Of a stretch of DNA of 6,443 bases, positions 4,375-6,443 are shown piece after piece. Made by a program: the position numbers and the translations under genes. Source of the stretch: a virus. Its lineage: Duplodnaviria; Heunggongvirae; Uroviricota; Caudoviricetes. Below the pieces are notes generated by a model. That model did no database searches, was not told where the DNA came from, and saw only the letters and a program-made list of their open reading frames with translations. Positions within the stretch are counted from its first letter, which is position 1, and each line of letters starts with the position of its first letter. The DNA is taken from positions 1-6,443 of the IMG/VR virus record IMGVR_UViG_2531839666_000013; one strand, given 5' to 3'.

Positions 4375-4563
4375 CTAAATACGCACTTTAAGATAAGTCA
4401 GCCCCGGCTGGATCCAGTTATCAGGCTCAGTCTTAAAGGGTGGAGTATTGAAATCACGAAGAACGGTCTCCCGCACAACTGCATCCTTGTCAGCACCACT
4501 GGCCAGCGCTTCAATCTCAGCAGCTACCTGAAGATATCCCATGCAACGACCAATACGCTTCAT
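4375..4563 (-). CDS. Hypothetical protein (62 aa), second gene of a two-gene cargo module
   Basis: ATG at 4563-4561 overlaps the TGA of the upstream 265-aa gene (ATGA), with AGGGG 5 nt upstream; product [62 protein letters not shown]. No family recognised. Confidence 0.5.
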   Translation of the reverse strand: MKRIGRCMGYLQVAAEIEALASGADKDAVVRETVLRDFNTPPFKTEPDNWIQPGLTYLKVRI

Positions 4564-5360
4564 CAGCCCCTGTTTTTATTGTTCTTCAGGTAATCAATGG
4601 CAAATTCAATGAGCATCTCACAGTGCTGGTGCGATGGCGGTGTTACTTTTCCATTTTCTGATATGGTGATTTTCCCGTCATCACCGGATACAACAAAGGA
4701 TGGCCGGTTACACTCCCGTTCCTGGTTTTTGTCCGACACAGGCACAGTAAAATCACTTTCATGCCCGTTTTTACGACAGTCCTCGCCACGTACCGCAGCA
4801 AATACCGACAAGGCATACTCCTTTGCTCTCGCTTCATAGTCGCTGAATGTTGTTTTCGGATCGTAGTCTTCCCTGTACATAACCGACAGAACTTCCTCAT
4901 GATCAATATGAACACTGACCACGCTGCCTATTCTTTTGGTCAGCACAAGACGAGAATCTTCCCCGACTTTCACTCCTGGTGTCACACGTGCCGGAAGCTC
5001 CACATTAACCATCGCGCTCTGCACATCATCAGGCGCATTTTTTACCGGTTCGTTGACCTTTTCACGCCCCGGGTAAGTGGCGATTTTTTCCGGCATTGTC
5101 CATGAAGAAATATTCTGAAAGCCATATCGCGCAGTCCCTTCGCGTAATCCGAGAGCCGCATCCATGAAAAACTGCTTCGCCTGTTTTTTCGCCTCAGCTT
5201 CGTAAAACTCCAGCGTGGCACCTTCAGTACGGTCAAGACTAATCGCCACATATGGCGACAACAACGACGGCTGCCCGGCAATTACCAGTGCCACAGTAAC
5301 AGTTATCTTATCCGGGTAATGATTTATCCCTTTTACAACCAGTTCATATTTTTTATTCAT
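4563..5360 (-). CDS. Hypothetical protein (265 aa), cargo gene between pinholin and endolysin
   Basis: ATG at 5360 ([18 protein letters not shown]...) preceded by GGGGAG. Long stop-free frame to TGA at 4563-4565 with protein-like composition. In the ORF track it appears fused in frame to the holin as a 355-aa ORF (4563..5630), but the holin part is clearly a separate gene. One hydrophobic stretch ([22 protein letters not shown]) near the N-terminus; no motif I can assign. Confidence 0.7.
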
Positions 5361-5364
5361 CGCT

Positions 5365-5578
5365 TTACTCTCCCCGGGCGCCTTACGACGGTCTTCTTTA
5401 ATCTTGAAATACAGGTTCGTCAGGTACGTCAGCAGACCAAACAGCAGACTCCCCAGCACGCCTATTGCCGCCCACTGAGACGGGGAAACCCTGTCCAGCA
5501 ACTGCAGGAACCAGTAGCCCGTTCCACCGCTGACGTGGTGTATGACACACCTGTTGTGAATTTTTCCATCTGGTACAT
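5365..5578 (-). pseudogene. S: Class II pinholin (phage 21 S21-like) with dual-start motif; reading frame broken twice by apparent 1-nt deletions
   Basis: Frame B from ATG 5578 gives [17 protein letters not shown] (S21: MKSMDKISTGIAYGTSA); frame A then gives [50 protein letters not shown] (S21: [47 protein letters not shown]). Restoring one base near 5372-5381 recreates ...GE-TAA at 5365-5367, as in S21. It may equally be intact in reality if the deletions are sequencing errors. Confidence 0.8.
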
Positions 5579-5652
5579 ACCCGTCTCCGCAATCCGGAAG
5601 CTCACAACAATATAAAGACCACCGGCACACACCGATGGTCCCTTGCGCATGC

Positions 5653-5898
5653 TTACATCATCATGTCGCTGTCAGGTGTGGGGTCACCGCCATCTGAAGC
5701 ACTCCCCTCACCCGCGATACCTTCCGGCTCCGGAACTGCCGGTGCGCCCAGCAGTTCATCCAGAATGGCATCCACTTCTGCATCAAGACGCGCCTCGAGG
5801 TTCTGGCGGAGTTTCTGTTTCAGTGCGCTCAGGACTTCTTCAGAGCGCAGGACTTCCTTCACTGCCTCTGCAGTGACCAGGGATGTAATTTCTGACAT
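5653..5898 (-). CDS. Small highly acidic protein (81 aa), unknown function
   Basis: [81 protein letters not shown]: about 18 Asp/Glu against 6 Lys/Arg, helical N-terminal half and an acidic low-complexity tail. The track's 139-aa ORF (5653..6072) is the same frame with an implausible N-terminal extension. The RBS is weak. Confidence 0.55.
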
Positions 5899-5938
5899 GG
5901 GATTTTCTCGTCGAAAGGTGTGATTAAGAAAGTTGCAG

Positions 5939-6118
5939 CTAAATGAGCGGCTCTTCGGGTTTGCTTCCGGCTGACTGACTGGCGCTGATTTTCTCTGCGG
6001 CCCTTTTATCAATCTGCCTGCGCCAGAAATCGCGCACTGCCCTGTACCCACCCGAAAGAAGATACAGCACACAGACCGCCGTACAGAAGCACAGCATTAA
6101 CTGGTTCAGAAATGTCAT
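5939..6118 (-). CDS. Small membrane protein (59 aa, N-terminal TM helix), unknown function
   Basis: ATG at 6118 with GGTGAG upstream; MTFLNQLMLCFCTAVCVLYLLSGGYRAVRDFWRRQIDKRAAEKISASQSAGSKPEEPLI; stop TAG at 5939-5941. Just below the ORF-track size cut-off; it overlaps, in another frame, the unlikely extension of the 139-aa ORF. Confidence 0.45.
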   Translation of the reverse strand: MTFLNQLMLCFCTAVCVLYLLSGGYRAVRDFWRRQIDKRAAEKISASQSAGSKPEEPLI

Positions 6119-6204
6119 GGTTTCTCACCGTGATAGTTGACATGATTTACTTATTTTTGTAGAAAAACACCGCAGACTTCGGTGTCATCATGGTCGTTTT
6201 ACCA

Positions 6205-6267
6205 GCCGCCAGCATTCATGTAGTGGACAAAGTTCATCCCTTTCCTTCATTGCTGGCGGCCTTTTTT
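6205..6267 (+). terminator. Hairpin with 10-bp GC-rich stem and T6 tract (plus-strand polarity), directly after the stop of the upstream minus-strand gene
   Basis: Plus gccgccagca (6205..6214) pairs with tgctggcggc (6251..6260), separated by a 36-nt loop, followed by cttttttatc. The T-tract is on the plus strand only; on the minus strand the structure is preceded by an A-run. Confidence 0.3.
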
Positions 6268-6268
6268 A

Positions 6269-6443
6269 TCATGCCGCGGCATCCGCGTTGTTCACTTCCA
6301 CCTTCACACTGTCAATCAGCAACGTATATGTCGCCGCCTTTGATATGTCTGTCAGTTGCAGTTTGTCCGCCGCCCCTGATGCCGGAGATTTCACCAGTGT
6401 GAACGGTGTACCCCGTTCTCATCCAGTACCGGCGTCACCTGAA
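6269..6443 (-). CDS. 3' end of an unidentified upstream gene (partial), frame broken by an apparent 1-nt deletion in a G-run
   Basis: Minus frame c reads ...QVTPVLDENGVHRSHW-stop; the adjacent frame b continues as TPFTLVKSPASGAADKLQLTDISKAATYTLLIDSVKVEVNNADAAA to a stop at 6269-6271. Restoring one G in the GGGG run (plus cccc 6411..6414) joins them into one frame. Identity unknown; its position upstream of the holin would fit a late-gene regulator such as Q, but I cannot confirm that from the sequence. Confidence 0.45.

Follow-up and report, generated by a model that had tools for sequence, protein, structure and literature searches.

A conserved pair of small genes, DUF1378 and DUF826, in E. 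coli prophages and its association with a nanS-p-type esterase gene

Organization of the region

The window, i.e. the whole stretch of 6,443 nucleotides that was analyzed (IMG/VR record IMGVR_UViG_2531839666_000013), carries all of its genes on the minus strand, in the order nanS-p 3' end, DUF1378, DUF826, class II holin, DUF1327, SAR-type lysozyme, Rz/Rz1, and the small and large terminase subunits (Table 1). It is the late region of an E. coli or Shigella lambdoid prophage of the Stx-phage type. The two small open reading frames which the initial annotation had placed immediately upstream of the holin are both present as described, on the minus strand and spanning positions 5653-6118, and the gene directly downstream of them does encode a P21-type class II holin (PF04971), though its frame is broken in the window. 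The best match to the approximately 1.1-kb stretch containing the pair is 98.9% identical. Relative to the closest relatives the holin frame is interrupted by 1-nt homopolymer deletions at approximately 5378 and 5522, and a further 1-nt deletion lies near position 6415 in the 3' end of the esterase gene.

Table 1. Features of the region surrounding the DUF1378 and DUF826 genes
Feature	Position	Strand	Basis
nanS-p-type sialate O-acetylesterase gene, 3' end (SASA + DUF6645), runs off the window	6269..6443	-	Alignment to relatives, tblastn synteny
Putative PasA/PasC-type sRNA gene, convergent	6137..6270	+	Sequence; hairpin z -4.2; conserved geometry
Short hairpin and U-run between esterase and DUF1378, weaker terminator-like	6166..6186	-	Fold -12.6 kcal/mol, z -2.0
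DUF1378 gene, 59 aa	5939..6118	-	Pfam PF07125, PHROG 494, AF2, dN/dS, hydropathy/charge
DUF826 gene, 81 aa	5653..5898	-	Pfam PF05696, PHROG 311, AF2, dN/dS
Terminator-like GC-rich hairpin with T-rich tail, 9 nt downstream of the stop codon of DUF826	5614..5643	-	Terminator scan; fold -22.1 kcal/mol, z -3.4
P21-type class II holin gene (pinholin family), frame interrupted	5365..5578	-	PF04971, 88.5 bits; comparison with NZ_CP046539 and NZ_CP129252

Single-base indels, most of them homopolymer deletions, were found in the window at 5378, 5522, 5579-5586, 6415, 4572, 2583 and 672-695 upon comparison with the closest complete genomes. They disrupt the frames of the holin, the esterase 3' end and the large terminase subunit, leave DUF1378 and DUF826 untouched, and create an artificial 355-aa ORF in which the holin is fused to the DUF1327 gene. 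These indels are either homopolymer sequencing errors or signs of a decaying prophage. The DUF1327-containing frame which follows the holin (4563-5360, minus strand) is approximately 265 aa long here, other relatives having a frame of approximately 114 aa. The closest genomes list it as an incomplete pseudogene, and its C-terminal 150 residues were without a family match.

Coding status and protein families

Membership in a Pfam family requires a score above the curated gathering threshold across the whole domain, and both proteins score in this manner. The 81-aa protein was matched to PF05696 (DUF826) with an E-value of 3e-41 and 139.8 bits (cut-off 25), its residues 1-75 aligning with positions 1-75 of the 75-position profile, while the 59-aa protein was matched to PF07125 (DUF1378) with an E-value of 3e-36 and 123.8 bits (cut-off 25), residues 1-59 aligning with positions 1-59 of 59. 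In the PHROGs collection the two proteins fall into PHROG 311 and PHROG 494, respectively, both of which are annotated as of unknown function.

DUF1378 is intact in all of the 251 related loci and DUF826 is of full length in 244 of them; the acidic ORF is thus upheld as a conserved coding frame. The median pairwise dN/dS of DUF1378 was 0.19, equal in the transmembrane segment and in the tail, and that of DUF826 was 0.13 for residues 1-51 and 0.49 for the tail. Since both frames are intact and under purifying selection, DUF1378 and DUF826 are to be regarded as expressed proteins. They are genuine protein-coding genes and ordinary members of catalogued families.

The DUF826 protein of the window is 94-100% identical to many E. 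coli/Shigella prophage proteins and shares with its family relatives (C-terminal part of 933W L0106; WP_001290219.1) the slot between DUF1378 and the holin. Its DUF1378 protein is 93% identical to the commonest E. coli cluster (WP_000143455.1) and shares with its relatives the slot after the esterase gene. Nothing notable differs in either case. Identical or near-identical copies of both proteins are present in thousands of genomes, and the feature as such is already known. A functional account was not found in the literature on L0106 and Z1467/ECs1208-9, and the one paper of the searched literature in which both families were named described them as proteins of unknown function.

Predicted structure of the two proteins

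The single N-terminal transmembrane helix and basic stretch attributed to the 59-aa protein agree with its hydropathy and charge: the Kyte-Doolittle maximum (19-residue span) is 2.05 at residues 3-21, and residues 25-45 have a net charge of +4. AF2 predicted one continuous helix from residue 2 to residue 50. The protein is laid out as a transmembrane helix (residues ~2-22), a conserved SGGY motif, a juxtamembrane helix of basic, amphipathic character and, last, a short Pro/Glu tail, and its transmembrane segment contains invariant residues under a constraint equal to that on the rest of the protein. DUF1378 is accordingly predicted to be a bitopic inner-membrane protein. Based on the positive-inside rule its topology would be N-out/C-in, with the basic amphipathic helix facing the cytoplasm.

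The composition reported for the 81-aa protein (approximately 22 percent Asp/Glu, net charge roughly -12) was reproduced, the 18 Asp and Glu residues (22.2%) and six Lys and Arg residues giving a net charge of -12. This charge is divided between a helical domain (residues 1-51, net -5) and a Pro/Glu/Asp tail (residues 52-81, net -7). An AF2 model of the monomer, based on a 24-sequence alignment, contained helices at residues 10-17 and 20-50 (pLDDT 89-97), while residues 55-76 had a pLDDT below 50. The tail is variable in length and sequence, rich in Pro, Glu, Asp and Thr, and ends in a hydrophobic tripeptide; it is missing from the distant homologues of Salmonella and Pantoea, which are 59-61 aa long. 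The difference in dN/dS between the two parts (0.13 vs 0.49) indicates that it is the helical domain, and not the acidic tail, which is the conserved part of the protein. DUF826 is predicted to be a cytoplasmic protein in which an acidic amphipathic helix is followed by a disordered, loosely constrained acidic linker.

The C-termini of DUF826 (window positions 5653-5661, and homologues) are almost always rich in Met/Leu/Thr (MMM, TML, MML, TMM), while the preceding 25-40 residues vary freely. This Met/Leu/Thr-rich tripeptide could be a short linear motif, e.g. a docking site or a degron.

Transcription and hairpins

The initial annotation regarded this position as one where a late promoter region is normally expected. 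In phages of this type it is not a promoter region, because Q and pR' are located several kb upstream, on the far side of nanS-p; in relatives the distance to the antiterminator gene Q is 3.5-5 kb, and stx and/or nanS-p occupy the interval. A scan of positions 5300 to 6443 detected no sigma-70-like promoter on the gene strand, and the sole strong promoter-like element near the pair faces the opposite strand. Transcripts of nanS-p have been observed to increase by 1-2.4 log with mitomycin C, alongside those of late genes (PMC10462455). Because Q lies upstream, nanS-p is induced by mitomycin C and the gene strand is without a promoter of this type, the pair would most simply belong to the Q-dependent late transcript.

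The terminator-like hairpin which follows DUF826 (at least 8 pairs) was present in 241 of 241 loci, the Mu-like loci described below included. Among the 37 unique sequences which these represent, there are at least six unrelated versions of the stem. The hairpin forms the 3' boundary of the conserved module and, in the lambdoid context, lies upstream of the ribosome-binding region of the holin gene. The weaker hairpin between the esterase gene and DUF1378 was missed by the consensus terminator scan.

On the minus strand between the terminator-like hairpin and the holin start (5583-5613), the segments CUUCCG and CGG(G)AG can pair, which would sequester the holin Shine-Dalgarno sequence. This pairing recalls the structures by which dual-start usage is determined in the S genes of lambdoid phages.

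A convergent small RNA gene

The opposite-strand promoter-like element belongs to a putative sRNA gene that is convergent with the late genes. It consists of a perfect TTGACA (6137-6142), a spacer of 17 nt, TAGAAA (6160-6165), a body of approximately 95 nt, and a long GC hairpin (~6204-6261) with a T-run abutting the esterase stop codon; the 5' end of the RNA is predicted near position 6172 on the plus strand. The same geometry, i.e. TTGACA, 17-18 nt, T(A/T)A(A/G)AA, a body of approximately 75-95 nt and a hairpin with T7, was identified in 234 of 242 loci, again including the Mu-like ones. The -35 box is located 19 nt from the start codon of DUF1378, and over its whole length the RNA is predicted to be complementary to the part of the late transcript which precedes that gene. 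Read on the gene strand, the region upstream of DUF1378 shows a conserved TGTCAA motif and a conserved T-run at a fixed spacing; the TGTCA motif is explained as the -35 box of the putative sRNA promoter on the other strand. A stem between TGTCA and the start-codon sequence UGACA was considered and rejected, since changes in the start region leave the upstream motif in place.

A search of the whole window against Rfam (E <= 1) returned chance-level matches only, none of them at 6137-6270. PasA and PasC (EcOnc51/52) are Hfq-dependent sRNAs which were validated in EPEC E2348/69 (PMC8550237, Table S6), and they have been surveyed between sialic acid esterase and holin-lysozyme genes (bioRxiv 10.64898/2026.05.13.724894). 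The main text of that survey refers to none of DUF826, DUF1378, small proteins or open reading frames, and the published descriptions of PasA/PasC are without mention of the two small ORFs that lie between the sRNA and the holin.

The element at 6137-6270 resembles PasA/PasC in its position between esterase and holin, its convergent orientation, its putative intrinsic terminator and its promoter-to-5'-end spacing (TTGACA approximately 30 nt before the mapped 5' end), as well as in its length of approximately 80-100 nt and a 3' GC hairpin with a U-tract abutting the esterase stop. By these features it may be classed with them. Its body has diverged from those of E2348/69 PasA and PasC, with partial similarity near CGTTTTA.CCAGC; no alignment was obtained with blastn-short, and by eye only the pre-terminator segment and the stem motif resemble PasC.

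Distribution of the gene pair

The approximately 1.1-kb stretch was matched in 2435 of 5426 complete E. coli genomes and in 345 phage records, mostly of Stx-converting phages. The phage collection contained 306 records with DUF826, 307 with DUF1378 and 351 with the esterase. DUF1378 and DUF826 are always adjacent and occur almost one-to-one, both in the phage records (307/306) and in the 251 loci. Approximately 44 phage records (351 vs 307) are esterase-only, so that the pair shows the presence or absence at the same position in close relatives that is characteristic of morons. An exhaustive profile search of 1.84 billion representative proteins yielded 53 matches only, the named members being from E. 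coli/Shigella, Citrobacter, Salmonella and Pantoea. When the DUF826 profile was run over one genome per species no confirmed locus was obtained; the species representatives presumably lack the cassette.

Synteny

Lambdoid loci show, with hardly any variation, the order esterase, DUF1378, DUF826, class II holin, (DUF1327), lysozyme, and the esterase gene lies upstream of the pair in every locus with enough flanking sequence. This order by itself cannot tell which neighbor matters. A second arrangement was identified in Mu-like E. coli prophages, where the genes are ordered baseplate/tail-fibre, tail-fibre assembly, Gin-type invertase, SASA + DUF6645 esterase, DUF1378, DUF826, Com, Mom and host genes, and where neither holin nor lysozyme is encoded within 8 kb of the pair. 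The genes form a diverged subfamily, its esterase being approximately 62% identical and its DUF1378 approximately 55% identical. Two DUF826 representatives of the Mu-like type, P0231 and P0254, were present on at least 1000 and on 614 contigs, respectively.

In the Mu-like loci of E. coli chromosomes (L242-L249; e.g. L242, 5584-9864) the NanS-p-like esterase has SASA and DUF6645 but is without DUF1737, and the trio is situated at the end of the prophage. A link between nanS-p and Mu-like prophages was not found in the searched literature.

There are also natural lambdoid elements which keep the esterase, the sRNA and the same holin but are without the pair, for example LC727892.1, which is a Stx1a phage, and PP2, a prophage of EPEC E2348/69. 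Two such pair-less variants (L261, 2267-2713, which is E2348/69 PP2, and L255, 4852-5298) were seen to carry the esterase, a degenerate PasC-like copy, PasA, a terminator-like hairpin and the holin. They look like deletions or replacements of DUF1378/DUF826.

The trio in Mu-like prophages without lysis genes, taken together with the holin-bearing loci without the pair, leads to the conclusion that the conserved unit is esterase plus pair and not pair plus holin. On this comparison the pair is dispensable for both lysis and the esterase. The earlier description of the two genes as an accessory pair stands insofar as they are always adjacent and are absent from some similar phages; the anti-defence and lysis-timing roles attached to that description are without support.

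A short form of DUF826 occurs alone, without DUF1378 or esterase, between the lysis and terminase genes in Pantoea and in a small prophage-like island in Salmonella.

DNA methyltransferase genes have been inserted into these cargo regions as well. In some Mu-like loci they follow Com (L219, 4088-5140), and in the closest lambdoid relative the insertion lies within the lysis cassette (L002, 3569-4504). These insertions show how rich in cargo the positions are.

Proposed role of the pair

The explanation which we favor is that nanS-p, the convergent PasA/PasC-type sRNA, DUF1378, DUF826 and the terminator-like hairpin make up a mobile accessory module. In lambdoid and Stx prophages this module occupies a slot which has Q/pR' (plus stx, if there is one) on its upstream side and the pinholin/SAR-endolysin cassette on its downstream side, and it would presumably be transcribed by Q-modified polymerase reading through the hairpins. 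DUF1378 and DUF826 would be non-essential cargo of the late operon, and a membrane-tethered complex of the two may serve the esterase module or another late host-directed function, and not holin gating. Taken as a whole, this explanation has in our estimation a slightly better than even chance of being correct.

Within it, the acidic helix of DUF826 may dock on the basic juxtamembrane helix of DUF1378. Across all unique sequences the charges of the two are complementary, residues 25-46 of DUF1378 carrying +2 to +4 and the helical domain of DUF826 -2 to -5. Direct pairing of the proteins is proposed tentatively from these charges, and we hold it to be somewhat unlikely.

Several observations argue against a role in the module. 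Short-form DUF826 is found without DUF1378 or esterase, and therefore the helical domain can work without either partner; the roughly 44 esterase-only phage records indicate that the esterase does not need the pair; and co-inheritance of the three genes can reflect a single transfer plus linkage and need not denote a shared function. DUF826 is near lysis genes in three of four contexts, which makes a lysis-related role possible.

The best surviving alternative is that DUF1378 and DUF826 are lysis-timing accessories, tuning either the P21-type pinholin or SAR endolysin release. It draws on the position of the pair, directly upstream of the class II holin in every lambdoid locus examined, on the highly conserved transmembrane helix, which suggests a specific intramembrane partner, and on the short-form DUF826 genes, which lie downstream of lysis/spanin genes in Pantoea and beside a weak spanin-like match in Salmonella. 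Analogous layouts are known among lysis regulators. The T4 RI/RIII antiholin comprises a small membrane-anchored protein and a small soluble helical protein of approximately 80 aa in a phage with a holin, and LysA of P2 is a lysis-timing accessory of analogous layout. The pair considered here resembles RI/RIII in combining a small membrane-anchored with a small soluble helical protein of about 80 aa; it differs in that no sequence relationship was detected and in that linkage to a holin is not obligatory. Against a holin-specific role, pair and esterase are kept under selection in Mu-like prophages at a distance of at least 8 kb from any holin or lysozyme gene, and phages and prophages with the same holin and endolysin occur without the pair. 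Moreover, a terminator-like hairpin separates the pair from the holin, and no similarity to holin or antiholin families was detected in Pfam, PHROGs or NCBIfam. A part in lysis timing, which the initial annotation had suggested, is consequently considered improbable.

A more elaborate possibility is that esterase, PasA/PasC-type sRNA, DUF1378 and DUF826 form a four-part unit. In one version the small proteins at the inner membrane would position, regulate or release the signal-peptide-less NanS-p before or at lysis. In another the sRNA would pair with the late transcript upstream of DUF1378 and thereby gate the transcription or translation reaching DUF1378, DUF826 and the lysis genes. That such a unit exists, by membrane handling of NanS-p or by sRNA gating, is judged to be a little less probable again than a part in lysis timing.

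The pair could also be a conversion or superinfection-exclusion cassette, expressed in the prophage state from its own promoter and protecting the membrane of the lysogen. In its favor, the pair has traits that morons typically show, namely a small membrane protein, presence/absence polymorphism and, in the hairpin found after DUF826 at all 241 loci, what may be a terminator of its own. However, an upstream promoter of its own, the remaining property of a moron, was not seen on the gene strand of 5300-6443; the interval between the esterase gene and DUF1378 is without a promoter-like site on this strand, and the 50 nt upstream of DUF1378 are taken by the oppositely oriented sRNA promoter. Expression of this kind in lysogens is therefore thought to be quite unlikely.

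Even less likely is an anti-defence function, in which DUF826 would counter restriction or some other defence, either by mimicking DNA or by serving as a sequestering decoy, and would be assisted by DUF1378. The acidity that led the initial annotation to this reading is real and extends over the family (net charge -7 to -16), the location is rich in cargo, and in Mu-like prophages the pair adjoins com-mom, an anti-restriction DNA-modification module. The DNA-mimic anti-restriction proteins Ocr and ArdA are small, very acidic, rigid folded mimics that are made early. DUF826 is likewise small and very acidic, but it is predicted to consist of a single long helix and a tail that is both disordered and variable, and its gene belongs to the late operon; such a slot, deep in that operon, would be ill suited to countering restriction at DNA entry. 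Structure prediction, which had been suggested as a means of recognizing mimicry of B-form DNA, gave a monomer without a rigid acidic scaffold and without an ordered array of carboxylates, and the acidic tail is the fastest-evolving part of the protein and is missing from the short homologues.

The database searches likewise gave no support to an anti-defence function. The 81-aa protein does not belong by sequence to a known mimic family; in NCBIfam it had a far-sub-threshold match only (HspR, 15 bits vs 300), the Pfam scan gave a single far-sub-threshold match beyond the two DUF families, and PADLOC gave no match for the pair. A sequence search of the PDB with both family profiles returned a helix of the tail-spike protein gp29 as its sole match, which was rejected as a chance similarity (E 0.14; domain i-E 0.86). 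Foldseek comparison of the DUF826 model with BFVD gave no match at E <= 0.001, as expected of a single helix.

Finally, the proposal that the ORFs are chance frames or mis-annotations, the real gene being, for example, a 139-aa ORF with a GTG start which overlaps DUF1378 in another frame and matches the old 933W annotation L0106 and long database entries, owes its appeal to older records that give one longer ORF over both genes (933W L0106; PHROG 8301) and is already refuted by the conservation analysis, since the N-terminal extension overlaps DUF1378, whose own frame is constrained (dN/dS 0.19) and intact in 251/251 loci, and the long forms differ by the choice of start codon only. Apparent fusions of DUF1378 with DUF826 (PHROG 8301; entries of 128-141 aa), which might have been taken as Rosetta-stone evidence, were discarded as over-extended starts in another frame or frameshift artefacts.

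Significance

As a discovery the present finding is modest, both families being catalogued and neither a structural nor a mechanistic surprise having emerged. The small new points are that the trio of esterase, DUF1378 and DUF826 is shared by lambdoid and Mu-like prophages, that it has a conserved terminator-like boundary, and that the pair lies between the sRNA gene and the holin. The analysis also removes two labels, DNA mimic and holin regulator, which were tempting and unsupported.

Nearly all Stx phages have the pair in the stretch that leads from the toxin to the lysis genes, and almost half of the complete E. coli genomes carry it. Recent papers that deal with this stretch refer to the pair briefly, if they do so at all. 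That it travels with nanS-p and with an sRNA of a validated Hfq-dependent type, even into Mu-like prophages, provides partners to test. If the four-part unit proposed above were true, it would constitute an unrecognised layer of control in Stx phages.
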